DNA of 57,289 nt from Candidatus Parcubacteria bacterium. Its GTDB lineage: Bacteria > Patescibacteriota > Minisyncoccia > Phycocordibacterales > UBA2100. The notes under the pieces are model-generated. The model did no database searches, was not told the DNA's origin, and saw only the letters and a program-made list of their open reading frames with translations. The stretch covers positions 1 to 57,289 of the forward strand of contig QZIY01000013.1 of NCBI GenBank assembly GCA_003599175.1, written 5' to 3'. Shown in pieces: positions 2,662 to 57,289 of this stretch (its first letter is position 1; the number at the start of each line of letters is the position of its first letter). The translations under genes and the position numbers were made by a program.

Positions 2662-3246
2662 TCAGCGTTTGTGTAGACCTATCAATGCAATAAGTTTCTC
2701 GACTTCAAGTTTACGTGCAAAACGTACAGTATATTTGGGTCGCCGTAAATCCATCGTTTTTGACACCATTGGCCGAAGTCCTAAACACTTCGACATTTCA
2801 GCCACGTCTTCAATAAGTTCTTGGGTTTGATTCGTAAAATTGATCATACGATAACCTCGGTCTTCGTAAATACTCCCGTCAGTTTGTATAAGACCTCGGA
2901 GACATGCTGACATGTAAACGGTGTTGCATTTTATCCAATCTGGTACGCGGGCTTTTTGGGCATATTTAGTACCCAAGCCGACCTTCCACGGCATTAATTC
3001 ACTCAGCTTATTTGAGTATATTGATATATTATGGAAAGTGTTCTTTCCTGGAACTCTGACTATCGAAATGCGATTATTGGGCAAGATCATCTTCAGATTC
3101 TTCTGAATTTCCTCGGATACACCTGAATACTTTGTATCGCAGGTAATTCTTAATCGTATCGCTCGACTGACTTTTGATAAGTTACCGTCCCCCAATGCGA
3201 CGCCTACGATATACGCTAAAGCGACCTTTTCGGGGTCAGCATACAT
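2662..3246 (-). CDS. free-standing double-motif LAGLIDADG homing endonuclease (194 aa)
   Basis: Two LAGLIDADG motifs (YIVGVALGDGNLS and LRGLIQTDGSIY). Start moved to the Met at 3246 because the upstream part of the tracked ORF (to 3396) is the tRNA-Leu gene. Visibly AT-richer than neighbours. Confidence 0.8.
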   Translation of the reverse strand: MYADPEKVALAYIVGVALGDGNLSKVSRAIRLRITCDTKYSGVSEEIQKNLKMILPNNRISIVRVPGKNTFHNISIYSNKLSELMPWKVGLGTKYAQKARVPDWIKCNTVYMSACLRGLIQTDGSIYEDRGYRMINFTNQTQELIEDVAEMSKCLGLRPMVSKTMDLRRPKYTVRFARKLEVEKLIALIGLHKR

Positions 3247-3248
3247 AA

Positions 3249-3329
3249 TGCCGGAGGAGGGACTCGAACCCTCACGAGTTGCCTCAATCGATTTTGAGTC
3301 GATCGCGTATACCATTCCGCCACTCCGGC
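3249..3329 (-). tRNA. tRNA-Leu (anticodon CAA), class II with long variable arm
   Basis: 81-nt cloverleaf on the minus strand: acceptor GCCGGAG/CTCCGGC, anticodon stem ATCGA/TCGAT with loop CTCAAAA, variable arm GAG-GCAA-CTC, T arm GAGGG-TTCGAGT-CCCTC, discriminator A. Confidence 0.85.
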
Positions 3330-3379
3330 AATAATGGCTAGTGTACGAGTTTTGCGACGAAAAACAAATATATGCAACA

Positions 3380-3388
3380 TGGTATAAT
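3380..3388 (+). promoter_or_regulatory. extended -10 (TGGTATAAT) 6 nt upstream of the parB ATG
   Basis: CATGGTATAATCGCGGCATG. Spacing leaves no room for a leader or SD. Confidence 0.55.
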
Positions 3389-3394
3389 CGCGGC

Positions 3395-4405
3395 ATGCCA
3401 GCGAGCCCCTACAGACAAGACTCGATTTTTTGGGTGGAGGTGGAGCGGATAGAGCCCAATCCATACCAGCCGCGCAAGGTATTCGACGAGGCGGCACTCA
3501 ATTCACTCGCTGAATCCATTCGCCAATATGGCGTCTTGCAGCCCCTCACCGTTACCCGCAAAGAGATCGAGCGACCGGGAGAGGGGATTTCTGTGCACTA
3601 TGAACTGATCGCAGGAGAGCGACGCTTGCGTGCCGCCAAAATCGCGGGAATTGTGCAAGTGCCGGTTGTCATCCGAAGCGGCGAAGACGATGATCGATTG
3701 AAGCTCGAGCTTGCCATCATCGAGAATTTGCAGCGCGAGGATTTGAATGCGATCGATCGCGCACTCGCGTTTCAGCAGCTCGCCACGCAATTCGGTCTTA
3801 CGCACATGCAGATAGGGAAGCGCGTCGGCAAAAGCCGCGAATACGTATCCAACAGTTTGCGCATGCTCCTTTTGCCGCAGGAGATGCAGGAGGCCGTGCG
3901 CAGCGGGGAAATCAGCGAAGGTCACACACGCCCGCTCCTCATGCTCATGGACCGCCCGCAGGAGCAGAAGACGTTTTTCCAAGAACTTTTGCTTCGCAAG
4001 ATTACCGTGCGCGACGCCGAGCAGCTCGCGCGCCGCATCGCCACGGAAAAGACGCGCAAGCCCGATCTCACGCCGGAGCTCCTCCTCTTTGAGCGCGAGC
4101 TTACCGAGAAATTGGGTACACGCGTCCGTATCGAAAAGAAAGATCAAGGCGGAAAGGTGGTGATCGACTTTTTCTCAGTCGATGATTTGGCGCAGATTCG
4201 CACGCTGCTTTCGGAGGCGGGAATTAAGGCAGTGGCAGCGCCCGTGGTGAGGAAGCAGGAAGAGCCCGTTCTTTCTGAAGCGCCGGAAGCCGAACCGCAG
4301 CCAGAGAGAATACCTGAAGAGACCAAAAGGGACGAAAGGGTAGAAGGGGAGAAAAGGGATGAAAAGGAAGACGAGTTGTACTCGATCAGTAATTTCAGCG
4401 TGTAA
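3395..4405 (+). CDS. parB: ParB/Spo0J-family partition protein with acidic/Lys-rich C-terminal tail
   Basis: ParB boxes: EPNPYQPRKVFDEAALNSLAESIRQYGVLQPLTV and LIAGERRLRAAKIAG. Start set at the Met after the -10 box. No parA is adjacent. Confidence 0.9.
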   Translation: MPASPYRQDSIFWVEVERIEPNPYQPRKVFDEAALNSLAESIRQYGVLQPLTVTRKEIERPGEGISVHYELIAGERRLRAAKIAGIVQVPVVIRSGEDDDRLKLELAIIENLQREDLNAIDRALAFQQLATQFGLTHMQIGKRVGKSREYVSNSLRMLLLPQEMQEAVRSGEISEGHTRPLLMLMDRPQEQKTFFQELLLRKITVRDAEQLARRIATEKTRKPDLTPELLLFERELTEKLGTRVRIEKKDQGGKVVIDFFSVDDLAQIRTLLSEAGIKAVAAPVVRKQEEPVLSEAPEAEPQPERIPEETKRDERVEGEKRDEKEDELYSISNFSV

Positions 4406-4416
4406 AGTGTTATGCG

Positions 4417-4520
4417 TTATTCGGCAGCGCGGCGCGTATCGGTAGACGGCATCCGACGTGCGTCAACGTTTGCCGCGAGCCGTGAGTCGCTGACGCGCAG
4501 CGCTGCCGTATACCGTATTA
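4417..4520. repeat. structured intergenic element (SIE family, reverse orientation) between convergent parB and RSH
   Basis: Outer arms CGGCAGCGCGGCGCGT / ACGCGCAGCGCTGCCG. The reverse complement carries CGCGTCAGCGACTCACGGC, resembling the SIE core CGCGTCTGCGGGACTCGTGGC. Confidence 0.4.
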
Positions 4521-6059
4521 CGAATTTTTCTTCTCGCGCGCTGCAAGCGCCGCACGGATATGCTTTTTCGCCATGTTGGTCTTTGCGATGTCGTGCCACT
4601 TGCGCGACGGCTTGCCGAGCGGGCGATTGATGATTTCTACCACATCGCCGTTTCGAAGCTCAGTGTCGAGCGCGACCATCTTGCCGTTGACCTTGGCACC
4701 CGACATTGTGTTGCCGATATCTGAGTGCACTGCGTATGCAAAATCGATCGGTGTCGCCGAGACGGGCAAGTCGATGACATCGCCCTTGGGGGTGAAGACG
4801 AAAATGCGGTGACTGAAAAAGTCAGTCTTCAGCGTATCGAGGTATTCCTCCGATGCAGCGCTGCCGCCGTGCGCGTGTGAGAGCTCTTTGACCCACTGCG
4901 GGATCGTTTCCGCCGCATCGTCTTTTTCACGCAGCGTCGTCTCCGTACCTTTCCCTAGCGGGAAAAATTGCCGTACCCAATCGAGAGAGCCGCGGCGCGG
5001 CACATTGCCTTCCTGTGTTTCCTTGTATGCGAGGTGCGAGGCGATACCGAACTGCGCTTCTTGGTGTTGACCTTCCGTGCGAAGCTGGATTTCGAGCGCC
5101 CCTCCGTCGCCTGTGTAGACGGTCGTGTGAATTGATTGATAGCCGTTGGGCTTTGGGAAGGCAATATAATCCTTGATCTTGCCTGGTACCGGGCGCCAGT
5201 GGGCATGAATGATGCCGAGTGCGCTATAGCAATCCGCAACTGCGGGGAAAATGACGCGGAGCGCGATGATGTCGTAGATTTTGTTAATATCCCAATCTTT
5301 GCGCTCGAGTTTGCGGTATAAGCTGTAGAGTCCTTTCTTGCGTGCCTCCATGCTGAAATTGCGCAGACCCGCATCGGCAAACTCGCGCTTCAGTACTTTT
5401 TCGGTTTTCTCTAAGCGTTTTTCGTTCTCATGGCCGCGTTCTTTCAAAAGCTCGCGCGTCTTTTCATATTCTTCAGGGTAGCCGTAGGGGAATGCAGCGT
5501 CTTCCAATTCCTGCTTCAAAACGCTCATACCGAGTCGGTCCGCTATCGGCGCATAAATTTCGAGCGTTTCGAGCGCGATGCGTTGGCGTTTCTCGGGCTT
5601 GGGGACGTGTTTCAGGGTCTTCGCGTTGTGGAGACGATCCATCAATTTCACAATCAAGACACGGATATCCTTTGCGGTGGCGGCGAAGAGATTGCGGAGC
5701 GATTCGGTATGGCGTTCGAGCCCGCGATAGCGGAGCGCGCCGAGCTTTGTCACTCCTTCGACCAGATACAAGACTTCAGCACCGAAGTGTTCCTCAATCT
5801 CCTTGGCGCCGACTCCCGCGTCTTCGATGGTGTCGTGCAAGAGTCCCGCTGCTATTGTCTGTGCGTCGAGCCCTGCCTCGGCGAGGAAGAAGCCCACATT
5901 GGTCGTGTGCACGGTGTATGGGTCGCCCGAATAGCGCTTCTGATTTTTGTGTGCTTCGACTGAGAAATCATATGCTCGCGTCACCAGATCCACGTCACTC
6001 TCCGTCTTGTTCGGCATCGCGTCGATGATTGTTTTGAGTGGGATGGTTTGATTGAGCAT
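4518..6059 (-). CDS. RelA/SpoT homologue (HD hydrolase + synthetase + TGS), truncated after TGS
   Basis: 513 aa. HD motif LLHDTIEDAG, synthetase region YQSIHTTV, TGS region IFVFTPKGDVIDLP. Ends about 60 aa after TGS, so no ZFD/ACT regions. Confidence 0.9.
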   Translation of the reverse strand: MLNQTIPLKTIIDAMPNKTESDVDLVTRAYDFSVEAHKNQKRYSGDPYTVHTTNVGFFLAEAGLDAQTIAAGLLHDTIEDAGVGAKEIEEHFGAEVLYLVEGVTKLGALRYRGLERHTESLRNLFAATAKDIRVLIVKLMDRLHNAKTLKHVPKPEKRQRIALETLEIYAPIADRLGMSVLKQELEDAAFPYGYPEEYEKTRELLKERGHENEKRLEKTEKVLKREFADAGLRNFSMEARKKGLYSLYRKLERKDWDINKIYDIIALRVIFPAVADCYSALGIIHAHWRPVPGKIKDYIAFPKPNGYQSIHTTVYTGDGGALEIQLRTEGQHQEAQFGIASHLAYKETQEGNVPRRGSLDWVRQFFPLGKGTETTLREKDDAAETIPQWVKELSHAHGGSAASEEYLDTLKTDFFSHRIFVFTPKGDVIDLPVSATPIDFAYAVHSDIGNTMSGAKVNGKMVALDTELRNGDVVEIINRPLGKPSRKWHDIAKTNMAKKHIRAALAAREKKNS

Positions 6060-13228: not shown

Positions 13229-13822
13229 ATGCAATCGAAAAAAATATTCATCCTCCTCGGACATCCTGACAAAAGTGGCATGTGCGGTTCCTTGGCGGAT
13301 GCCTACGAAAAAGGAGCGCGCGACGCGGGGCACACCGTGGAGCGTATGAATATCGGGGAGATGCAGTTTGATCCGATTTTGCACAAAGGGTATCGCGCAA
13401 TGCAGGAGCTCGAACCGGATTTGAAGCGTTTTCAAGAGCTCGTCACCAATTCTGATCATTTTGTCGTGATTTACCCTGTGTGGTGGGTGGGCATGCCCGC
13501 AATTCTCAAAGGCCTGTTCGACCGCGCGTGGCTTCCGGGCTCCGCATTTCGCTATATCAAGACGAAGGCGGGAAAGCGGACAATATTTTGGCACCGCCTT
13601 TTCCGCGGGAAGACGTCTCGTATCATTATGACCAGTGGTACCGCACCCATCTTGGTGCGATTCTTGCCGGGCAACGTCAACGCGCAGCTGCGCTGGGGTA
13701 TTCTCTGGTTTGCCGGATTCAAAGTACGCACCACCTGGTACGGCCCGGCCGAAAACACGCCCGAGCCGACCAAAATGCGCTGGATTAATCAGGTGACTGA
13801 GCTTGGCCGCCGCGGGTGTTAA
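13229..13822 (+). CDS. flavodoxin-like NAD(P)H dehydrogenase (quinone) family protein
   Basis: KIFILLGHPDKSGMCGSLADAYEKGARDAGHTV...FDPIL...HFVVIYPVWW is typical of the Flavodoxin_2/KefF-like fold. Confidence 0.8.
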   Translation: MQSKKIFILLGHPDKSGMCGSLADAYEKGARDAGHTVERMNIGEMQFDPILHKGYRAMQELEPDLKRFQELVTNSDHFVVIYPVWWVGMPAILKGLFDRAWLPGSAFRYIKTKAGKRTIFWHRLFRGKTSRIIMTSGTAPILVRFLPGNVNAQLRWGILWFAGFKVRTTWYGPAENTPEPTKMRWINQVTELGRRGC

Positions 13823-20622: not shown

Positions 20623-20658
20623 TACGCATATTTTGTCCGATCGGACAAAATATGCGTA
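20623..20658. terminator. perfect palindrome between convergent leuS and cysS (bidirectional terminator candidate)
   Basis: TACGCATATTTTGTCCGA|TCGGACAAAATATGCGTA, with 18-nt arms and no mismatches. Confidence 0.65.
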
Positions 20659-23273: not shown

Positions 23274-23440
23274 AATATGCGAACTGGATTTTGTGCAGCG
23301 CGAGTCGCGTGCGATAATTGCGCGAATGCGTCCCGTTAGAAATCGCGGACGCAAACAATACATGCTTTCTGGTGTCGAAATTATAAAACGTAGCAAAGTA
23401 GGGCTCGGCGAGATGTCGTCCGCGTCCTATTTCTAACGGG

Positions 23441-24709
23441 ATGCGCAGCGAAGAAAGGAAAATCATCATCTCTGTGGCGGCTGCGATGATCGCCACCGTC
23501 GTGCTTCTCATCGGGGGATTCTTGGGGGGATACTTTTTGGCGGTCAATCAGGCACATCGCGGCGTAGGGCTTGCGGCAGGTGCGCCGGAGGGCGTGGATC
23601 TTTCACCGGTCTGGAAGGCCTGGTACACGATCGATGAGAAATTCGTTCCCGCATCCGTCTCGACATCGACTCCGATGGCTACGACCACGGCCGAACTCAA
23701 TCAAGAAAAAGTGTGGGGCATGATCCAAGGTCTCACGGCATCCTTGAACGATCCATACACCTATTTCATGCCGCCGGTGGAGAACGAGCAGTTTGCGACC
23801 GAAATGCAGGGTTCCTTCGAGGGTGTGGGTATGGAAATTGATGTGAAGGACGGCATTCTCACGGTCGTCTCTCCGCTCAAGGGATCTCCTGCAGAGCGCG
23901 CGGGGGTGCGAGCGGGCGACCACATTCTCAAGATCGATGGTGAGACGACTGAGGGCATGGATACGGGATCGGCGGTGCGCAAGATTCGCGGCGAGAAGGG
24001 GACCAAGGTGGTGCTCACACTCCGCGGCGAGGAGGACAGCCAGTCGCGGGAGGTTTCCGTGACGCGCGATGTGATCAATATCCCGATCGTCACCACCGAG
24101 AGCCGGCAAGACGGCATCTTCGTGATCCAGATCGCGGAATTCACCGCCAATGCGCCGGATCTCTTCCGCAAAGCACTCCGTGAATTTATGGAATCGGGCG
24201 ATTCGAAACTCATCATCGATCTTCGCGGCAACCCGGGTGGCTACCTCGAGGGCGCGGTGGAGATCAGCAGCTGGTTCCTCCCATCAGGTGCCATCGTAGT
24301 GTCTGAAGATTATGCGGGACACGCATCGAATATCGATCATCGCTCATACGGCTACGATATCTTTACAGACAAGCTCCAGATGATCATTTTGGTCGACAAG
24401 GGATCCGCATCGGCCTCTGAAATTATGGCGGGCGCACTCCGACACCATGGCGATGCAAAATTGGTCGGTACGAATACATTTGGCAAGGGTTCGGTGCAGG
24501 AACTGGTGCCGATCACCTCGGATACCTCGCTCAAGATTACGGTCGCGCGCTGGCTCGGCCCCGATGGCGAGCAAATCCCGCGTGACGGTATCGCACCCGA
24601 TTACGAAGTCGAAGTTACCGAAGAAGATCGCGAAGCGAAGAAAGATCCCCAATTGGCGAAAGCAGTGGAACTCCTTGGGGGCAATCCGGCGGTTGGGTCT
24701 GCAAATTAA
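23441..24709 (+). CDS. ctpA: S41 C-terminal processing peptidase with PDZ domain and N-terminal membrane anchor
   Basis: PDZ region GSPAERAGVRAGDHILKIDG, S41 motifs DLRGNPGG and GSASASEI. Confidence 0.9.
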   Translation: MRSEERKIIISVAAAMIATVVLLIGGFLGGYFLAVNQAHRGVGLAAGAPEGVDLSPVWKAWYTIDEKFVPASVSTSTPMATTTAELNQEKVWGMIQGLTASLNDPYTYFMPPVENEQFATEMQGSFEGVGMEIDVKDGILTVVSPLKGSPAERAGVRAGDHILKIDGETTEGMDTGSAVRKIRGEKGTKVVLTLRGEEDSQSREVSVTRDVINIPIVTTESRQDGIFVIQIAEFTANAPDLFRKALREFMESGDSKLIIDLRGNPGGYLEGAVEISSWFLPSGAIVVSEDYAGHASNIDHRSYGYDIFTDKLQMIILVDKGSASASEIMAGALRHHGDAKLVGTNTFGKGSVQELVPITSDTSLKITVARWLGPDGEQIPRDGIAPDYEVEVTEEDREAKKDPQLAKAVELLGGNPAVGSAN

Positions 24710-24713
24710 ATAA

Positions 24714-24840
24714 CCGCGGGATGGAATGTTTTCGCGTCTGCGGGACTCGTGGCGTCCTAAACACCGTTGGGCGTTACCAACTGGTGTTTAGGCGCTACTC
24801 GAACAAGGTCCTCGACGCAAAAAGCACTCCATCCTGCGGG
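24714..24840. repeat. structured intergenic element SIE-1 (127 nt)
   Basis: Outer stem CCGCGGGATGGAATG/CACTCCATCCTGCGGG, core TTTTCGCGTCTGCGGGACT, inner hairpin GCGTCCTAAACACC...GGTGTTTAGGCGC, 3' core CTCGAACAAGGTCCTCGACGCAAAAAG. Confidence 0.55.
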
Positions 24841-25798: not shown

Positions 25799-26164
25799 AT
25801 GCAGAGAATACATGAATATTCGGGCAAGATCAAGGGCGTATTGGACCAGGGGCTCTCCGAGTGGGGCATCTTTGCCATCGTGGTCCTCGTAGGGCTTATT
25901 TCCTTTGGTTTGGGCCGTTTATCGGCCTTAGAGGAGGCCAGACCCCCGGTATCCGTCTCTATGGCGGCCGCCGTGGCCGCCCCTGCCCCTGTAGCCCCTG
26001 GGGGCCTCGTGGTGGCGTCGAGGGGAGGGAGTAGCTACTACTACCCCTGGTGCGGCGGGGCGCAGAATATAGCGGAGGGGAATAAGGTCTGGTTCGACTC
26101 GGAAAAGGAGGCTGAGGCAGCCGGATATGTACCTGCGAAGAATTGCAAAGGTCTAGAAAAATAA
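25799..26164 (+). CDS. membrane-anchored small protein with C-terminal Cys motif domain
   Basis: One TM helix ([18 protein letters not shown]), Ala/Pro linker, C-terminus [35 protein letters not shown]. Confidence 0.6.
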
Positions 26165-26328
26165 CGAGCGAAGCGACTATATTTTTCTTGATCCCGCCCC
26201 AATTTTGAACCTTCGGATAAATGTGCAAGACTGATGATAATTGGAGACGAGAAAGAGCATATGATCATCGAATTTACAAAGTCGAAATTGGGGCGGGATG
26301 TAAGAGCTTCTAAGCTCGCTTCGCTCGC
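26165..26328. repeat. 164-nt nested hairpin between the 25799 gene and the exonuclease gene
   Basis: Outer CGAGCGAAGCGA/TCGCTTCGCTCG and inner GATCCCGCCCCAATTTTGA/TCGAAATTGGGGCGGGAT, with a 73-nt apical region. Confidence 0.5.
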
Positions 26329-26342
26329 TAAGAATCTCTAAC

Positions 26343-26936: not shown

Positions 26937-27138
26937 GGTTGAAAAACAAAAAGCTGCGCGATTCTTCCGTCAAAGAATTCGCGCAGCAAGCGCGGCACGC
27001 CCGCGCAAGAACTTCAACGGACTCGCACTTCCTGGGGGTGTCGGGGGTGGAAGTGCTATTGCCGGGACGGGTTTCAATGCTAGCAATTGAATATAAAGAT
27101 CGAGTTAAATTTTTATGTCGCCTTTATGCTACGCTCTA

Positions 27139-27394
27139 CCTGTCTCCCCGCGGAGATCTCCAATGCGCTTCTGCCCGTAGGGTAGGGGGACGGCATCGGA
27201 GTCTGTAGCAGCAACGGAGGCAGCAATGCCGATCGCTTGCATCGGTCAGGTCGAAAAGCGCCACGAGCCGTGCGCATCGACCGAGACCACCATCGCCCTC
27301 TGGCCAGAGCTCTAAGCACCATCCCGCATTGAGCATCTGAGCAAGAGGAAGGCCGGCACCTTACCGCCAATTGGGTACCGGCCCTCTCTTTTGC
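27139..27394 (+). ncRNA. candidate structured RNA of unknown class with its own terminator
   Basis: GC-rich ~255-nt non-coding block preceded by an AT-rich promoter-like stretch (27080-27130). Strong hairpin at 27244-27288. Ends in GGCCGGCACC-N13-GGTACCGGCC followed by CTCTCTTTTG. No credible ORF. Confidence 0.4.
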
Positions 27395-27425
27395 TGCGAT
27401 CGAAAACGCCTCCTTGTGGGGTCTA

Positions 27426-28394
27426 ATGAAGAGCGTAGAATGGCGGGGCATGGCGATTACAATAGAACAGCTGGATAATAGATATCGAGAGAAAAATGCC
27501 ACGATCATTCTTGGGGAAAATATTTTATTGAAATTTGTTCCGGAAAAATCAGTATTTGATCGAAATGACTCTCTTCGAGAATTAATCAGTACGCAAAATT
27601 TTCTTCTGGGTGAAGGTCCTAAAAACATTGGCCAAATGGTCAATCTGTCGAACAGGATCAAAAAAAGACTTGAGCATCATATTCAGTCCCAGGAACTCGC
27701 AGGTTCCTTTTTAAAGAAAGACAGATCAGGCAAGCCTGATATCGGTTTTTTTGAAAGACATATTAAACCCGACTTGATCGCGGGGGTAAAAAAACTTGAA
27801 GACTTGAGCCAGGCCGTGGATAAGTTAGAGGATTCTTTCCCACGTCGTCTTGGTCGCTCGGCGCCACATTATTTTTGTGATAACTGTATCGCCTATATCG
27901 GAACAGATATAGCACCGAGCAAATGCACGATTTGTGGAAGTGCTATAAATATTCATAGCGCTGTTCGCAATTTGCGATACTTAGAGCCAGATGTCTTTGA
28001 TTATCTCGGCGGGAAATGGTTTGAGGATTACATCGGAAAGATCTTCGAGTCCAATGGATGGAAGGTTTGGAAGCATGGATCAGTTATGGGGACTTCAGGT
28101 GAAAAGCATCCAATCGACGTATTAGCTGCAAACAATAAGACTGCAAACGTTCTAGTTGCGGAATGCAAAATCTCCCAGGATAGTTTTGCTGACAAAGACA
28201 TGCTCGCTTTCAAAGCGAGATGGCACGAAATTAGTGCGGCTCACGGTTTTTTCATCGTGCTAGGTAATGATGAGAGAGGTGAACTACAGACAAAAAGAAT
28301 ATTTGCTCGGACACCGGGCCTCTGCTTTCTGAGTGGCATGGGCGGCATGACTGACGCGCAAATCTACGAACAAATAACAAGTGAAATAGCTTAA
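27426..28394 (+). CDS. Zn-ribbon + PD-(D/E)xK (Mrr-cat-like) restriction-endonuclease-fold protein
   Basis: CDNC...CTIC ribbon, then WFEDYIGKIFESNGWKV...HPIDVLAANNKTANVLVAECK (D...ExK). The ORF opens at TTG 27414, with ATGs at 27426 and 27450. AT-rich relative to flanks. Confidence 0.65.
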   Translation: MKSVEWRGMAITIEQLDNRYREKNATIILGENILLKFVPEKSVFDRNDSLRELISTQNFLLGEGPKNIGQMVNLSNRIKKRLEHHIQSQELAGSFLKKDRSGKPDIGFFERHIKPDLIAGVKKLEDLSQAVDKLEDSFPRRLGRSAPHYFCDNCIAYIGTDIAPSKCTICGSAINIHSAVRNLRYLEPDVFDYLGGKWFEDYIGKIFESNGWKVWKHGSVMGTSGEKHPIDVLAANNKTANVLVAECKISQDSFADKDMLAFKARWHEISAAHGFFIVLGNDERGELQTKRIFARTPGLCFLSGMGGMTDAQIYEQITSEIA

Positions 28395-28402
28395 TTTTAT
28401 GA

Positions 28403-28702
28403 ATGTGTAAAAATACCGATATGAATGGCGTTAAGGAACAGTCCGGAATATTGACGTGGACAAGAGACAATATAAAAGACGCACCTGAAACCTGCGGTGT
28501 ACTTGTGCTTAGATTTTCACCAGTTAATGGTGACATTCTTTTAATTGAGGCTAGCGAGAATATCAACATTGCTTTGCGTACCCATTTGGAAAAGGAGGAA
28601 CCCGATTCGAAAATTAAATTTTTTGAATGGTACTCTACGAATAAACGAGAAGAAGCAGAAGCACTAGCAAATTTCTTACTAGAAAAGCATAGCTTGCACT
28701 AG
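28403..28702 (+). CDS. small protein with degenerate GIY-YIG-like layout (99 aa)
   Basis: CGVLVLRFSPVNGDILLIEASENINIALRTHL...EEAEALANFLLEKH mirrors GVY..-..YIG...L..R...H...E..LI, but the Tyr residues are replaced. 8-nt gap after the nuclease gene. Confidence 0.4.
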   Translation: MCKNTDMNGVKEQSGILTWTRDNIKDAPETCGVLVLRFSPVNGDILLIEASENINIALRTHLEKEEPDSKIKFFEWYSTNKREEAEALANFLLEKHSLH

Positions 28703-29223
28703 TCGGAAAAGCTAACTTCCCCGTGCGCACCAAAAGAGGGGAGCGAGTGAGCTTGGATTGCAATCGCCGAAATATTTTTGTCGTGGAAATTTTATGGCAG
28801 ATAGTTTGAGGGGAGAGAGGAGAAAAGTTTTAATTGGACAGGTGTTGACATACCTGTGGATAACTATGGTGTAATACTAGGGAGGGCGAGAACTTCTTCA
28901 TTTACGTAGCGCGCACAATATATCTTTTGCGACATTACTCTATCTACAAAGGGGCTTTGCTAAGCCTCAGCCACGGCCCGCGTGAGCCTCTAGGAGCCTC
29001 TCCAGTGCCCGCCTCCCATGCCTTGCGTATCATTCATCCCCCACTCATATCTCCGATTTCTACGGCGGCGGTTCCCTGAATCTTCTAATCCGATATTTCT
29101 TCCGAGCCCTGGGTATTTCCGATTAGCGACTCCCCCGCCTGTCTCAAATTTTTGAATCATTGGGGAAGTCACGAGATTTGTTTTTTTGGAATTTTCACCG
29201 ATTTAAATGCGATATAGGCTTCG

Positions 29224-29709
29224 TTAATCTTTCGAGTCGATACTTTGGCCGTTCAAAATTTCTCTAAATTGCTCCAGCGGTATCGTTCTTTCCTCTAACC
29301 AGATTGCCAAATCATCTACAGCTTTTTCTATTGGTAATTCTGTTTGAGCGAGCCACAGAGCTTTGTCACGTAATTCACCGCGACCAGCAACGACCGCTAC
29401 ATTGTTTATGTATAGAAAAACGATTGTGGCAGCAACGGAAAGCCTTTTGTTCCCGTTACCAAACGCGTGATTTCTATTAAAGGCATAAAACGTGATGGCG
29501 GCTTTTTTGTAGATTCCCGAATAAAGTTCCTGACCAAAGACTGCCTGTCTCGGCAAATTCAAACAAGAATCAAGTTTCGCTTGATCGTGGTCCTCATATA
29601 AGCCCATCGGCTCCTCCTCTTGGAAGAGCCGAGATGCTATATCGTGGCAAAGATCCTTCAGGATCTCTTTGTCGAGATAATTAACGGGAGAATCGTTCTC
29701 CTTTATCAT
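29224..29709 (-). CDS. doc: Doc (death-on-curing) family Fic-fold toxin
   Basis: Doc-type motif HAFGNGNKR. Confidence 0.9.
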   Translation of the reverse strand: MIKENDSPVNYLDKEILKDLCHDIASRLFQEEEPMGLYEDHDQAKLDSCLNLPRQAVFGQELYSGIYKKAAITFYAFNRNHAFGNGNKRLSVAATIVFLYINNVAVVAGRGELRDKALWLAQTELPIEKAVDDLAIWLEERTIPLEQFREILNGQSIDSKD

Positions 29710-29836
29710 AGCGGGCTAGATCTTTGAGCGTTTCGCCGTACTGACGAATAGCAAAATCGATACCAGCTTTTGCTTTCTGGTCTTTAGTTACAAAGTTGCC
29801 CGTTTTGCGGCTTTTCCTGAACATTCTCCAAAACAT
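29681..29836 (-). CDS. putative antitoxin of doc (51 aa)
   Basis: Small basic ORF (MFWRMFRKSRKTGNFVTKDQKAKAGIDFAIRQYGETLKDLARYDKGERFSR) overlapping the doc start by 29 nt. TATAAT lies 6 nt upstream of its ATG. Direct repeat CGTCTGTCA x2 lies upstream. Family not recognised. Confidence 0.45.
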   Translation of the reverse strand: MFWRMFRKSRKTGNFVTKDQKAKAGIDFAIRQYGETLKDLARYDKGERFSR

Positions 29837-29974
29837 ATACAAATTATAGCATATTCGTGTTCTGACAGACGTATGCTGTTGACAGACGATTCCCCAATTA
29901 CGTCGCAAAATATTTAAAATATTTCCCGACATAACTCTATAGCAGGGTAGGTCCCCTACTCGGTACAATGCGGT

Positions 29975-30631
29975 ATGCGATATGGCGACCGGATCAAGAA
30001 GCTTCTGACTCCTCTTGAGCACGCGATTTTTAAGAAGCTCAATACGCCGCAGAAGATTCAGGATTATTTGGATCGCCTCCCAATCAATTTTGAGATGGAC
30101 GGGGAGACATACCTCTCCCCTCGCCTCGTGATGAGGCAGGGGACGGCGCATTGCTTTGAAGGCGCGGTATTTGCAGCGACTGCACTCGCCTATCATGGCG
30201 AGCGGCCGCTCTTACTCGATCTGAAGACGAAGAAGCCGGATGTGGATCATGTCGTCGCACTCTTCAAGCAAAACGGCTACTGGGGCTCGATTAGCAAAAC
30301 CAATCGCAATATTTTGCGCTGGCGCGATCCGGTCTACACATCGGTGCGCGAGCTCGCACTTACCTATTTTAACGAATATTTTTACGACGACGGCCGCAAA
30401 ACGCTCGTCTCCTATTCGAGGCCCTTCGACCTCTCACAATTTCGCCCGGAAGAATGGGTGATTGCGGAAGAGGATTTGGATGATATCGCCCTTCGGCTCG
30501 ATAAGAGCCCTCACTTCCCTATCGTGCCCGCCAAAAATAAAAAGCTTTTGCGGAAGGCATCGAAGGTAGAGATCGATGCGATGAAAATCGTCGAGTGGAA
30601 GGTGCCCAAGGGGTATAAGGCGGGTATTTAG
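29975..30631 (+). CDS. hypothetical protein, possible papain/transglutaminase-like Cys-His fold
   Basis: GTAHCFEGAVFAATALAYHG ... DVDHVVALF ... suggests a Cys/His pair. No firm family call. Confidence 0.5.
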   Translation: MRYGDRIKKLLTPLEHAIFKKLNTPQKIQDYLDRLPINFEMDGETYLSPRLVMRQGTAHCFEGAVFAATALAYHGERPLLLDLKTKKPDVDHVVALFKQNGYWGSISKTNRNILRWRDPVYTSVRELALTYFNEYFYDDGRKTLVSYSRPFDLSQFRPEEWVIAEEDLDDIALRLDKSPHFPIVPAKNKKLLRKASKVEIDAMKIVEWKVPKGYKAGI

Positions 30632-31539: not shown

Positions 31540-31548
31540 AAGTGGGCG

Positions 31549-31674
31549 GGAGGCAAGGTGCTTTTCGTGTCTGCGGAACTAGCCGAGTCTTGAACATCGC
31601 TCGACGTTACGAGCGATGTTCAAGCTCTGCGTCGGACAAAAACCCCCTCGCCACAGAAAAGCCACCTTACCTCC
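31549..31674. repeat. structured intergenic element SIE-2 (126 nt)
   Basis: Outer stem GGAGGCAAGGTGCTTTTC/GAAAAGCCACCTTACCTCC, core TTTTCGTGTCTGCGGAACT, inner hairpin GAGTCTTGAACATCGCTCG/CGAGCGATGTTCAAGCTC, 3' core GTCGGACAAAAACCCCCTCGCCACAGAAAAG. Confidence 0.55.
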
Positions 31675-31689
31675 TCTAGAGTTCGTGCA

Positions 31690-36770: not shown

Positions 36771-36883
36771 GAGGCGGCGGAACATTTCCGTGCCTGCGGG
36801 GCTTGTAGCGTCCGATCGTGTCCAGAGGCACGATAGGCGCTACTTCGGACAAAGTCCTCGTCACAGAAACGTTCCGCCGCCTC
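36771..36883. repeat. structured intergenic element SIE-3 (113 nt) between mraY and ftsW
   Basis: Outer stem GAGGCGGCGGAAC/GTTCCGCCGCCTC, core TTTCCGTGCCTGCGGGGCT, inner hairpin TAGCGTCCGATCGTGTC/GCACGATAGGCGCTA, 3' core TTCGGACAAAGTCCTCGTCACAGAAACG. Confidence 0.55.
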
Positions 36884-39121: not shown

Positions 39122-39671
39122 TGTGTTCAAACGGCGCCGCAGTCTTTTCGAATGCTGCGAGTTCGGAAGAGATTGTACCATAATCAGGAAGCTCCTCTGC
39201 GGTTTGTACACCGAGATGTGCGAGTAATTCCGTGGTCGCGCGGTAAAGATATTCACGAGAATCCTCCGGGTTCGATACGCGCTCGAGAAGACCGCGCGAA
39301 AGCAGATTGCGGACGGTCGAGCTTGTATTGACGCCGCGGATGTAATCGATTTGCGCGCGCGTGGATGCGCCGCGATAGAGGACGGTCGCCAAGACTTCGA
39401 GCCCGGCTTCGCCGATGTCGCGCTGCAGTTGTTCTTCAAAAGTGGCTTTGATCGTATCGCTGACGCGCGGTGCCGTGACGAGGGCGACTTCCCGCTCCGT
39501 CTGTGCGAGCGCAAGACCACTGCCTTCGATCGCTGCTTTGAGTTCGCTTATCGCTGCTTGCGTCTCGCTTTCGGTGCAGCCGAGAAGCTGCGACAGCTTT
39601 TTCATGCTCAAAGAGCCCCCTTCGATAAAAAGGTAGCTTTGAGCGAGTGCTGCGCGGTCAGATAGTTGCAT
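38955..39671 (-). CDS. scpB: segregation and condensation protein B with a ~55-aa C-terminal tail
   Basis: ScpB pattern (LFIEGGSLSMKKLSQLL...GLALAQTEREVALVT...RGVNTSSTVRNLLSRGLLER). The tail overlaps the dac start out of frame by 167 nt. Confidence 0.85.
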   Translation of the reverse strand: MQLSDRAALAQSYLFIEGGSLSMKKLSQLLGCTESETQAAISELKAAIEGSGLALAQTEREVALVTAPRVSDTIKATFEEQLQRDIGEAGLEVLATVLYRGASTRAQIDYIRGVNTSSTVRNLLSRGLLERVSNPEDSREYLYRATTELLAHLGVQTAEELPDYGTISSELAAFEKTAAPFEHNGRSNTNDVHHGGVETGDGSGNSETRSAGSGSQATTGGAENSSAHTGGEGAPNTQ

Positions 39672-39674
39672 AAA

Positions 39675-39770
39675 GCGTATAGAGTATAGAGTATAGGGTA
39701 TAGGGGGAAATACGAAATACGCAGTAATTGAGTTGGTCTCCCTCCATACTCAATACCCTATACTCCATAC
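39675..39770 (-). repeat. inverted heptad-repeat arrays bridging the scpA stop and the scpB start
   Basis: Plus strand GCGTATAGAGTATAGAGTATAGGGTATAGGGGG (39675-39707) and CCCTCCATACTCAATACCCTATACTCCATAC (39740-39770, contains the scpA stop at 39758-39760). About 25/31 complementary. Confidence 0.65.
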
Positions 39771-40483
39771 TTCGGGACTCCTGCATTCTCTATTTCAATC
39801 TCAATATCAGAAAAGAGTTTTTCTTGCGTCACCGAAGCGGAGCCGCTTCTCACAAGTTCGAGCATTGCGAGGAAGTAGACTATGGTGTCGTGACGATTGG
39901 CTGATTTGGTGAGCTCGCTGAATTTTGCGCGAATGGCGCGTGTGAGGCGGTTGTGCACTTGCTTGATCACGTCTTCGAGTGCGAGGACGGGCGCGACGCT
40001 CGCCTCCGCGAGACTCGCGGGTGTCGGAATGGTCGAAAGAATCCTCTTTGCCGCGGCAAGAAGCGTATCGCGGCGTGATTCTCCCGGGCTAAAGACGAGT
40101 GGCCGCGCAGGCGCGCTTTTGGGGAGCATGAGAGGTTTCGCACCCCAATTTTTCTTCAGAAGTTTCGCTGCCTTGCGGACGAGTGCCAAGCGTGCGAGAC
40201 GTCGCTCAAGCTCATGAACGCTCTCGCGTTCGTCTTCGGTCATCTCCATCGTCGGCAAGAGCGTGCGGGATTTGATCAAGAGAAGCGTCGATGCAACGAG
40301 GATGAATTGCGATGTCTCCGCAAGCGGCAGTTCCGGCAATTTTTCGATGTACGCAAGGTAGCTATCGCACACTTCCGCCATACTCACTTCAGAAATCGAA
40401 AGCTTTCGTCCCTCGATCATGTCGAGAAGCGCCTCAAGCGGCCCCTCAAATTGTTCTCTCTTCAGTACAAACTTTTCAGGCAT
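39758..40483 (-). CDS. scpA: segregation and condensation protein A
   Basis: FEGPLEALLDMIEGRKLSISEVSMAEVCDSYLAYIE is the ScpA N-terminal signature. Confidence 0.9.
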   Translation of the reverse strand: MPEKFVLKREQFEGPLEALLDMIEGRKLSISEVSMAEVCDSYLAYIEKLPELPLAETSQFILVASTLLLIKSRTLLPTMEMTEDERESVHELERRLARLALVRKAAKLLKKNWGAKPLMLPKSAPARPLVFSPGESRRDTLLAAAKRILSTIPTPASLAEASVAPVLALEDVIKQVHNRLTRAIRAKFSELTKSANRHDTIVYFLAMLELVRSGSASVTQEKLFSDIEIEIENAGVPKYGV

Positions 40484-57086: not shown

Positions 57087-57289
57087 AATCGCCAACTCCT
57101 TCTGCGATTCGGACAATGAGCTTCAGTAGCCCATCATTCCTGCTGCGTAATACAGCAATATTAATAAAATGTCAATGAAGATGGTGCTAGTGTCAGAGCA
57201 AAGCGATTAGTGCATCTTGTGGAGTTTTAGCGGGCGTTGTGTGATTTTTTCGCAGTTTCTGCGGCCGCTGCCTTGCGCCACGGATGACC

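Follow-up and report, generated by a model that had tools for sequence, protein, structure and literature searches.

SIE-1, a family of structured palindromic elements at gene ends in a Kaiserbacteria-like lineage of the Patescibacteria

The window studied here is the whole 57,289-nt stretch of contig QZIY01000013.1 (assembly GCA_003599175.1, Candidatus Parcubacteria bacterium), read on the + strand, and coordinates are positions in this window unless the locus of a relative is named. It carries three copies of a structured intergenic element, SIE-1, that had been noticed in a preliminary description made from the letters of the window. The SIE-1 elements are real and structurally constrained, and the best reading is that they form a small family of non-coding imperfect palindromes, 113–158 bp long, in Kaiserbacteria-like Patescibacteria, of the kind of the REP/REPIN, ERIC and BOX repeats and the MITEs (miniature inverted-repeat transposable elements). 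Homologs of CtpA, MraY and RelA placed the host in Candidatus Kaiserbacteria/Paceibacterota (Patescibacteria, candidate phyla radiation, CPR), with its nearest relatives at 85–91% protein identity.

Copies, fold and covariation

The architecture claimed for three loci of the + strand was recovered at each of them. Copy 1 (24714–24840, + strand, 127 nt) lies 4 nt past the stop codon of ctpA (+), which encodes an S41 peptidase, and 38 nt ahead of the start of rplI (L9, +), on the coding strand of both genes, as had been described. Copy 2, whose boundary was moved to 31548–31676 (+ strand, about 129 nt), occupies the convergent spacer between the genes of VanY (+) and of an M23 peptidase (−), 8 nt past the VanY stop and 13 nt past the M23 stop. 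Copy 3 (36771–36883, + strand, 113 nt) is found in the spacer between mraY (−) and ftsW (−), 3 nt from the mraY stop. The elements are non-coding, without a conserved open reading frame (ORF). The conserved 5' and 3' cores of the preliminary description were present in all three copies: a search of the 57 kb with a degenerate form of the 5' core, TTYCGYGYCTGCGGRRCT, gave exactly three matches, all free of mismatches and on the + strand, and every copy also has the 3' core and the 3' loop TCGRACA(A). The 5' core and the TCGGACAA loop are located at 31562–31580 and 31632–31639 in copy 2, and at 36785–36803 and 36845–36852 in copy 3 (+ strand).

A covariance model constructed from copy 1 alone (R1) recovered copy 2 with 61.7 bits and copy 3 with 61.6 bits (E about 2e-10); with the filters off, the remaining matches in the window were generic hairpins of 26 bits or less. 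The covariance-model searches yielded one more member outside the window, L034e, and a second model (R2) was constructed from the four members. Scores with R2 ranged from 59 to 117 bits (copy 1, 96.6; copy 2, 117; copy 3, 88.7; L034e, 59), and R2 detected no member beyond the known four. The E-values of both models across the members ranged from 1e-10 to 1e-23. No Rfam family was matched: a search of the whole window against Rfam 15 at the gathering threshold returned two tRNAs only, and copies 1 and 3 at E ≤ 10 gave noise of 12–18 bits, against gathering scores of 44–113 bits. Copy 1 had no blastn match in phage and plasmid collections.

These searches bear on the possibility that three unrelated hairpin terminators are alike by chance or convergence. 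In these genomes it is common for a hairpin to follow a stop codon directly, as seen in the palindromes at the LeuRS|CysS junction of the window and of the relative's contig L011, and the window has other long hairpins without SIE-1 cores. The SIE-1 copies, however, show cores of 18–19 nt and about 30 nt in the same order and spacing, conserved bulges, and model E-values as low as those given above, and the sequences that follow the outer stems (GGGCGCTTGC, CTCTAGAGTT and TCCCTACTGC) lack the U-tract that an intrinsic terminator would have. The core pattern and the model searches effectively refute this explanation, to which we assign next to no probability.

As RNA, each copy folded into a single rod, with −77.2, −62.8 and −67.2 kcal/mol for copies 1, 2 and 3 (z −10.3, −8.7 and −8.7, respectively), and 0 of 200 shuffles were equally stable. 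The folds as single-stranded DNA (ssDNA) had −40.1, −36.8 and −37.6 kcal/mol (z −7.5 to −8.1). The reverse strands folded about equally well, which is expected of an imperfect palindrome.

The anatomy of the rod was established from a structure-based alignment of copies 1–3 and L034e. The outer stem P1 (12–14 bp) has a purine-rich 5' arm and a pyrimidine-rich 3' arm in every copy. It is followed by P2 (UUUU/AAAA, with closing pairs that covary as G-C, C-G or U.G), P3 (GCG/CGC in copy 1, GUG/CAC in both copy 2 and copy 3, and GCU/AGC in L034e), the bulge YCU, which is conserved on the 5' side, P4 (GCG/CGN), P5 (GGRCU/RGUCC, intact in copies 1 and 3 only) and P6 (6 bp, of which three positions covary). 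A bulged U is common to all copies. The apical hairpin P7 has the loop GCGUUA, ACGUUA or GCGUAA; in copy 3 the stem is shorter and the loop is CAGA. The returning 3' side carries the conserved UCGRACA(A), which is unpaired, and two bulged bases, a U and an A; this TCGRACA loop was unpaired in every fold and conserved in four of the four members.

In copy 1 the purine-rich 5' arm of P1 (24714–24728, + strand) pairs with the pyrimidine-rich 3' arm (24825–24839, + strand) through 12 bp, an A/C mismatch and more pairs. The 5' core TTTTCGCGTCTGCGGGACT (24729–24747, + strand) comprises the U-run of P2, GYN of P3, the YCU bulge, GCG of P4 and GGACU of P5. The inner hairpin (24749–24798, + strand) contains P6 (GTGGCG/CGCTAC), the bulged T that is conserved, and the P7 stem with its apical loop GCGTTA, and is followed by the 3' internal loop TCGAACAA (24799–24806, + strand; family consensus TCGRACA) and by the 3' core GGTCCTCGACGCAAAAAG (24807–24824, + strand), which provides the partner strands of P5, P4, P3 and P2. 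Of the pairings proposed between the 5' and 3' cores, the GGAC/GTCC helix (P5) is intact in copies 1 and 3 only.

Standard pairs made up 93.5% of the pair cells in the four-member alignment against 74% in shuffles. Double-changed pairs numbered 28, compared with 12.5 ± 2.6 in shuffles (0 of 500 as many) and 2–7 in slid controls; the alignment has four rows fitted by hand to the structure, and these values support pairing strongly but are not a calibrated probability. The helices P3 and P6 and the inner hairpin covary. Core identity was 68–77% over all pairwise comparisons and 70–77% among the window copies. For P7, identity was 64–69% among copies 1, 2 and L034e, and 19–35% between copy 3 and these. 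For P1 it was 33–36%, with the exception of copy 3 and L034e (75%, partly a composition effect). Judging from these sequence comparisons, the copies are homologous (paralogous) along their whole length and old, with stems that have drifted near saturation and yet are paired.

With respect to the preliminary description, the view that conserved unpaired strings together with compensatory stems indicate a selected structure was borne out by the covariation of P3, P6 and the inner hairpin and by the L034 ortholog, which keeps the fold. The outer stems do differ in sequence and still pair (33–36% identity between window copies), with the qualification that all share the bias to purines in the 5' arm and pyrimidines in the 3' arm. 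The inner hairpins, given as different in sequence but paired, proved so only for copy 3, which is different and shorter; those of copies 1 and 2 are 69% identical (P7 and loop), and their changes are mostly compensatory.

Two further candidate signals were rejected. The loop motif TCGGACAA was not significantly enriched, the 8-mer being observed 5 times against 2.3 expected (8 of 100 shuffles), and it also occurs inside a palindrome at 20623–20658. Ribozyme cores of the hammerhead (CUGANGA...GAAA) and hairpin-ribozyme types, compared by eye, did not fit the SIE-1 core CUGCGGR, and there was no Rfam ribozyme match.

Empty sites in relatives and a fourth member

All three elements were missing from the syntenic contigs of a sister lineage, L010–L015 and L044 (CtpA 84–86% identical) and L033 (MraY 85%). 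The sister genomes without SIE-1 include GCA_036516655.1, GCA_036516695.1 and GCA_001004655.1. The ctpA–rplI spacer is 169 nt long in the window, compared with 20–38 nt by the gene calls of L010–L015 and L044 and about 38 nt in the L010/L011 sequence. The VanY|M23 spacer is 150 nt in the window and 1 nt in L010–L015 and L044, and the mraY–ftsW spacer about 126–147 nt in the window and 28 nt in L033. The latter site was also empty in L034, L035, L039 and L046 (1–28 nt, with the genes overlapping in L039). These differences, 1–38 nt in relatives against 126–169 nt here, identify the elements as indels, and the alignment of empty and filled sites showed the whole rod, including the outer stem, as the indel unit. 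The elements sit 3–13 nt past stop codons and the start region of the downstream gene is intact.

No SIE-1 copy was found in about 45 kb of the sister lineage, nor in its contigs L048–L051 around the RelA gene, and searches with R1 and R2 over about 480 kb of relatives' loci returned only L034e. The density in the sampled DNA was 3 in 57 kb (window) and 1 in about 23 kb (L034). The aligned loci show that, as close relatives diverged, SIE-1 copies were acquired and lost at the ends of genes. The preliminary description had set the elements apart from recent MITE copies. This stands as far as the stems near saturation are concerned, but the contrast with mobile DNA fails, all three sites being empty in syntenic sisters. 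The divergence among copies is unlike a recent MITE burst and is compatible with long-lived REPIN-type repeats or with paralogous structured RNAs.

Comparison with the empty sites of relatives showed no target-site duplication at the junctions of copies 1–3, the boundaries being approximate at about 85% protein identity. The 5' arm of copy 1 matches the relative's GCGCGGCTTGAATG at 11 of 15 positions, which, at this divergence, is no more than suggestive of one outer-stem arm having derived from the ancestral spacer. A Pfam scan of the 56 ORFs of the window detected no transposase (including Y1_Tnp), recombinase, reverse transcriptase or Cas protein.

The fourth member, L034e, is located in the VanY|M23 spacer of GCA_964364365.1 (L034, 15981–16138, − strand) and scored 36 bits with R1 and 59 bits with R2. 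The L034 locus is inverted with respect to the window, and the orientation of L034e is therefore the same as that of copy 2, with flanks alike. MraY and FtsW of this genome are 77% identical to those of the window. In comparison with copy 2, 5 of the 15 P7 pairs of L034e were changed on both arms, all of them Watson-Crick and none broken. Fourfold-degenerate sites of four flanking genes are 45% identical between the window and L034, and the element core 73%. The compensatory changes in P7, next to fourfold-degenerate sites that are near saturation, indicate that the hairpin is under constraint. In a neighbour-joining tree of MraY and FtsW, the window paired with L033, of the lineage with empty sites, and L034 branched outside, which makes the VanY|M23 site filled in the window and in L034 and empty in the sister group of the window; the simplest history of the VanY|M23 site would be an old insertion, then loss in the sister lineage. 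The hairpin has therefore long been kept, by selection or by hairpin-templated correction, in a family that is dispensable.

Within L034e, a nested 27-nt (TGCC)n/GGCA hairpin (L034 16012–16038) is present at the position of the bulged U between P5 and P4, from which it follows that the rod tolerates insertions at that bulge.

A strict two-core pattern gave 8 matches in GTDB genomes, 17 in JGI metagenomes and 1 in IMG/VR, all attributed to chance by inspection and folding, their number being about the rough chance expectation; this pattern is too strict, and the L034 copy would not match it. A looser three-block pattern gave 65 matches in IMG/VR, 0 of which were confirmed by R2. The sequence TTTTTTCGCAGTTTCTGCGG at 57245–57264, about 25–45 nt from the contig end, resembles the 5' core and is supported by no covariance model; it could be a diverged or truncated SIE-1 copy at an assembly break.

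Orientation, rival readings and known systems

The three loci are in the same orientation, as had been stated, all on the + strand. This also fits a single replication strand, since over the first 40 kb or so the skew of G over C is positive irrespective of gene direction and all three copies are on that strand; the copies therefore share their orientation to replication and not to transcription. Relative to the operon beside it, copy 1 has the sense orientation and copy 3 (at mraY–ftsW) the antisense one. In the hand alignment, the + strand had 13 G.T wobbles versus 7 A/C mismatches, which are wobbles on the other strand, and the minimum free energy folds had 20 G.U pairs on the + strand versus 9 on the − strand. 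L034e folded with −101 kcal/mol on the + strand versus −88 kcal/mol on the − strand, and copy 1 had a slight preference for the + strand; copies 2 and 3 were equal or better on the − strand. Copy 3 keeps the strand asymmetry although the only evident transcription runs opposite. With 3–4 data points, the strand evidence leans to a strand-specific property at the DNA level together with a transcript hairpin that is independent of orientation.

A scan of the elements for promoters and terminators detected neither a sigma-70-like promoter nor a terminator, and only an internal piece of copy 1 was listed. This result concerns the reading of the elements as independently transcribed small RNA genes of the + strand, a new rod-shaped non-coding RNA (ncRNA) family in which copy 3 would be an antisense RNA over the mraY–ftsW junction. 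The location of all copies on one strand, the slight + strand preference in fold energy (copy 1, L034e) and in wobble pairs, and the conserved loops are in accordance with it. However, there is no sigma-70-like promoter or terminator at any copy and no room for a promoter, with copy 1 lying 4 nt past a stop and copy 2 filling a convergent spacer; moreover, the − strand folds of copies 2 and 3 are as good or better, and sister genomes can dispense with the elements. We consider small RNA genes very unlikely.

A selected cis-acting RNA of cell-envelope genes, in the 3' untranslated region (3'-UTR) or between cistrons, is the main rival, though on the whole it appears doubtful. With a protein or metabolite bound to its conserved loops (UCGRACA, YCU), it would coordinate how peptidoglycan mRNAs are stabilised, processed or terminated, and it would have spread by duplication. 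The conserved unpaired motifs stand alongside covarying helices, and an ortholog has been kept with compensatory changes at near-saturated neutral divergence. Every window copy abuts peptidoglycan genes (S41 CtpA, VanY|M23, MraY|FtsW), the copies are as diverged as old paralogous RNA motifs (cores 70–77%), and G.U pairs are commoner on the + strand. On the other side, copy 3 is antisense to the mraY–ftsW transcript, so that the orientation to transcripts is not fixed as in a cis-regulatory RNA; only the VanY|M23 copy has an ortholog; the three loci are empty in the sister lineage with the same genes, and the mraY–ftsW site is empty in L034, L035, L039 and L046 too. The + strand stem has no U-tract, the elements were not listed by the terminator scan, and no Rfam match was obtained. 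The gene association was noticed post hoc, in a region that is a cell-wall cluster.

The strongly favoured ssDNA folds and the single orientation relative to the GC skew could point to a site acting at the DNA level, either a folded ssDNA site for recombination or priming (attC-like, or ssi/primosome-like) or one bound by a protein that organises the chromosome. The hairpins of attC and IS608 are recognised with the involvement of extrahelical bases, which the conserved ones of SIE-1 recall. Like attC, SIE-1 combines variable sequence with conserved structure, in a folded single strand with extrahelical bases right after a stop, and attC sites measure 57–141 nt. They differ in that attC has conserved outer R''/R' boxes and a variable centre, while SIE-1 varies most in its outermost stem and is conserved in the middle. 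Reading of the four sequences found no R''/R' boxes (RYYYAAC/GTTRRRY) at the stem ends; there is no integron integrase or cassette array, the XerC/D-like integrase of relatives is absent from the window, and the flanking core genes are in fixed synteny. A DNA-level site of this type can be given little credence.

Among interspersed repeats, the likeness to REP/REPIN sequences is that both are extragenic, non-coding and palindromic, fold as single strands, and are found at gene 3' ends and in the spacers of convergent genes. REP hairpins can persist vertically with compensatory changes, and strand-specific recognition of this kind would account for the bulges conserved in SIE-1 and for its single orientation. 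REPs, however, measure 20–40 nt and REPIN doublets about 70–100 nt, they start with GT[AG]G, and they occur as tens to hundreds of near-identical copies beside a RAYT gene, whereas SIE-1 is one rod of 113–158 nt with variable ends and cores only 70–77% identical. The GT[AG]G motif at the base of the inner hairpin is present in copy 1 (GTGG) and copy 3 (GTAG) but not in copy 2 (GCCG) or L034e (GCAA). Instead of many near-identical copies there are three in 57 kb, with outer stems at 33–36% identity, and no RAYT or Y1 HUH transposase was found among the 56 ORFs of the window.

The 127-bp enterobacterial ERIC/IRU and the pneumococcal BOX, RUP and SPRITE repeats resemble SIE-1 as imperfect palindromes of about 110–130 bp with extensive predicted structure in transcribed intergenic regions, with presence or absence between close relatives, a narrow lineage, and a structure thought to affect co-transcribed genes. 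Pneumococcal BOX, RUP and SPRITE, a documented analogue, are species-restricted, structured and co-transcribed, and were judged parasitic (PMC3049150). These families are high-copy and similar in sequence over their full length, and BOX has a modular build (boxA, B, C); in the sampled DNA SIE-1 has few copies, with stems diverged near randomness while paired. Similarity in sequence to ERIC or BOX families was neither expected nor seen, the comparison being limited to the negative Rfam and phage/plasmid blastn searches. MITEs, e.g., Correia/NEMIS, are likewise short, non-autonomous, insertion-polymorphic, fold-back sequences in tight intergenic spacers. They are defined by conserved terminal inverted repeats (TIRs) and target-site duplications, and SIE-1 shows neither: P1 pairs within each copy but is only 33–36% identical between window copies. 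By formal criteria, SIE-1 is not a REP, a classical MITE, an attC site, an intrinsic terminator or a member of any Rfam family.

The reading that we favour, tentatively and with a confidence that stops somewhat short of even, is that SIE-1 is a lineage-restricted palindromic repeat similar to REP, ERIC and BOX, whose folded single strand is recognised and maintained and which is passively co-transcribed at gene 3' ends. A trans-acting enzyme, presumably encoded elsewhere in the genome, would recognise the folded single strand, and the element would thereby persist and spread; this recognition is modelled on RAYT or IS200/IS605-type HUH enzymes with REP and PATE hairpins. The folded strand would most simply be the + strand exposed on the lagging-strand template. 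Recognition of a single strand would explain the conserved asymmetric bulges and the single orientation to replication rather than to transcription. Either orientation would give a very stable stem-loop in the transcript, and copies may thus be tolerated, perhaps even be useful, directly after stops, where such stem-loops could protect the mRNA, direct its processing or insulate neighbouring genes as 3'-end or intercistronic hairpins. In agreement with an interspersed repeat, the elements are present or absent at orthologous sites, the window copies measure 113–129 nt, and there is no conserved ORF; double changes beyond shuffle and slid controls, in four sequences aligned by hand, are in agreement with a constraint on pairing in general.

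Several points weigh against the repeat reading. Only four members are available, and the copy number, orientation bias and wobble asymmetry are very small samples. The termini differ between copies (P1 33–36%) without a visible target-site duplication, and the Pfam scan of 56 ORFs gave no transposase, recombinase or reverse transcriptase. A core identity of 70–77% is not what a family in active transposition looks like and is closer to that of old structured RNAs related as paralogs. All window copies adjoin peptidoglycan-related genes (ctpA, vanY|M23, mraY|ftsW), an adjacency that a cis-element predicts and a selfish repeat does not; yet the region is a cell-wall gene cluster. Finally, compensation in a palindrome can also arise at the DNA level by hairpin-templated correction, and the covariation is therefore silent on which molecule folds.

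A more far-reaching interpretation, which we hold to be unlikely, is that SIE-1 is a functional structured nucleic acid of a new class in the CPR, with the unpaired motifs (UCGRACA, YCU, bulged U's) read by a dedicated trans-acting protein. It might then be a 3'-UTR or antisense module coordinating the peptidoglycan genes (ctpA, vanY|M23, mraY|ftsW), or the folded ssDNA substrate of an undescribed mobilisation or recombination enzyme that needs no conserved termini or target duplications. A full-text literature search for Patescibacteria, Parcubacteria or CPR together with MITE, palindromic or structured RNA gave nothing relevant.

Other hairpins of the region and significance

A second intergenic family is present in the window (23328–23444) and in relatives (L033 12213–12329, L047 5692–5810, L035 about 13349–13455). 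It has conserved TIRs, TCCCGTTAGAAATCGCGGAC...GTCCGCGTCCTATTTCTAACGGGA (TIR CCCGTTAGAAAT...), and a duplicated ATGA or ATGCG. In three genomes its position coincides exactly with a start codon, and the direct repeat on its two sides contains ATG: in the window this is ATGCG, at the start of ctpA; in L033 it is ATGA, where the ftsW stop and the murG start overlap; and in L047 it is ATGA, at the start of rplI. Given this duplication, each insertion regenerates the start codon at its 3' end (...CTAACGGGATG). The family has the appearance of a MITE for which ATG(A) gene junctions are targeted or duplicated, and this fits the overlapping genes of compact CPR genomes. The occurrence of this clearly mobile, MITE-like family in the same genomes was counted as context for reading SIE-1 as a repeat.

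Other hairpins of the window carry no SIE-1 cores or are not supported as members. The convergent spacer between a ParB-like gene (+) and RelA/SpoT (−) is filled by a 113-nt hairpin (4409–4521) with 29-nt arms that are 83% complementary; R1 gave it 25.6 bits and R2 did not report it, and it was rejected as an SIE-1 member. The two genes overlap by 4 nt in L048, and this hairpin is therefore also a lineage-specific insertion. A perfect 36-nt palindrome, TACGCATATTTTGTCCGA|TCGGACAAAATATGCGTA (20623–20658), is located right past the stop of a class-I tRNA synthetase gene (LeuRS-like by Pfam) that is convergent with CysS, and a different perfect palindrome of 34 nt occupies the same LeuRS|CysS junction in L011 (1146–1179). 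It seems that hairpins where convergent genes end keep their position but not their sequence. The mraY–ftsW junction, the site of copy 3, holds a different 122-nt insertion in an 82%-identical relative (L045 4424–4545), with a AGAACTTGG repeat hairpin and small GC hairpins; this junction is hit independently by different hairpin-forming sequences.

Nested inverted repeats without SIE-1 cores were observed at 26162–26330 (outer arms TAACGAGCGAAGCGA/TCGCTTCGCTCGCTA, inner arms ATCCCGCCCCAATTTTGA/TCGAAATTGGGGCGGGAT) in a 178-nt spacer before an RNase T-like gene. A spacer of about 237 nt (39521–39757) separates an S11 carboxypeptidase gene from the next upstream gene (PF02616 ScpA by Pfam), with GTATAGR tandem repeats that form a hairpin (39676–39771) with 19-bp arms; in relatives the S11 gene overlaps the upstream scpB. 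A variable island at about 27000–30000, of lower G+C (0.47), includes an ORF for an Mrr_cat-like restriction endonuclease (27414–28394), a weak DUF7508 ORF and a Fic/DOC ORF (29224–29709), and relatives carry there a gene for an XerC/D-like tyrosine recombinase. A LAGLIDADG_3-domain ORF (2662–3396) adjoins the gene of tRNA-Leu(CAA) (3248–3330), which it overlaps in its longest reading; the LAGLIDADG gene is conserved in relatives.

With four copies, the significance of SIE-1 is modest. Elements of this type can break metagenome-assembled genomes, and ncRNA screens in which covariation is equated with a function as RNA can be misled by them. The genomes of Patescibacteria are tiny and tightly packed, and in the sister lineage the same gene pairs are 1–38 nt apart or overlapping; SIE-1 shows that repeat dynamics operate even in such streamlined genomes, where gene-end hairpins are recurrent. 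With its conserved centre, its variable ends and no target duplication seen, it departs from the usual definitions of REPs and MITEs, and it could be a sign that folded single strands are propagated or used in a way so far unrecognised.

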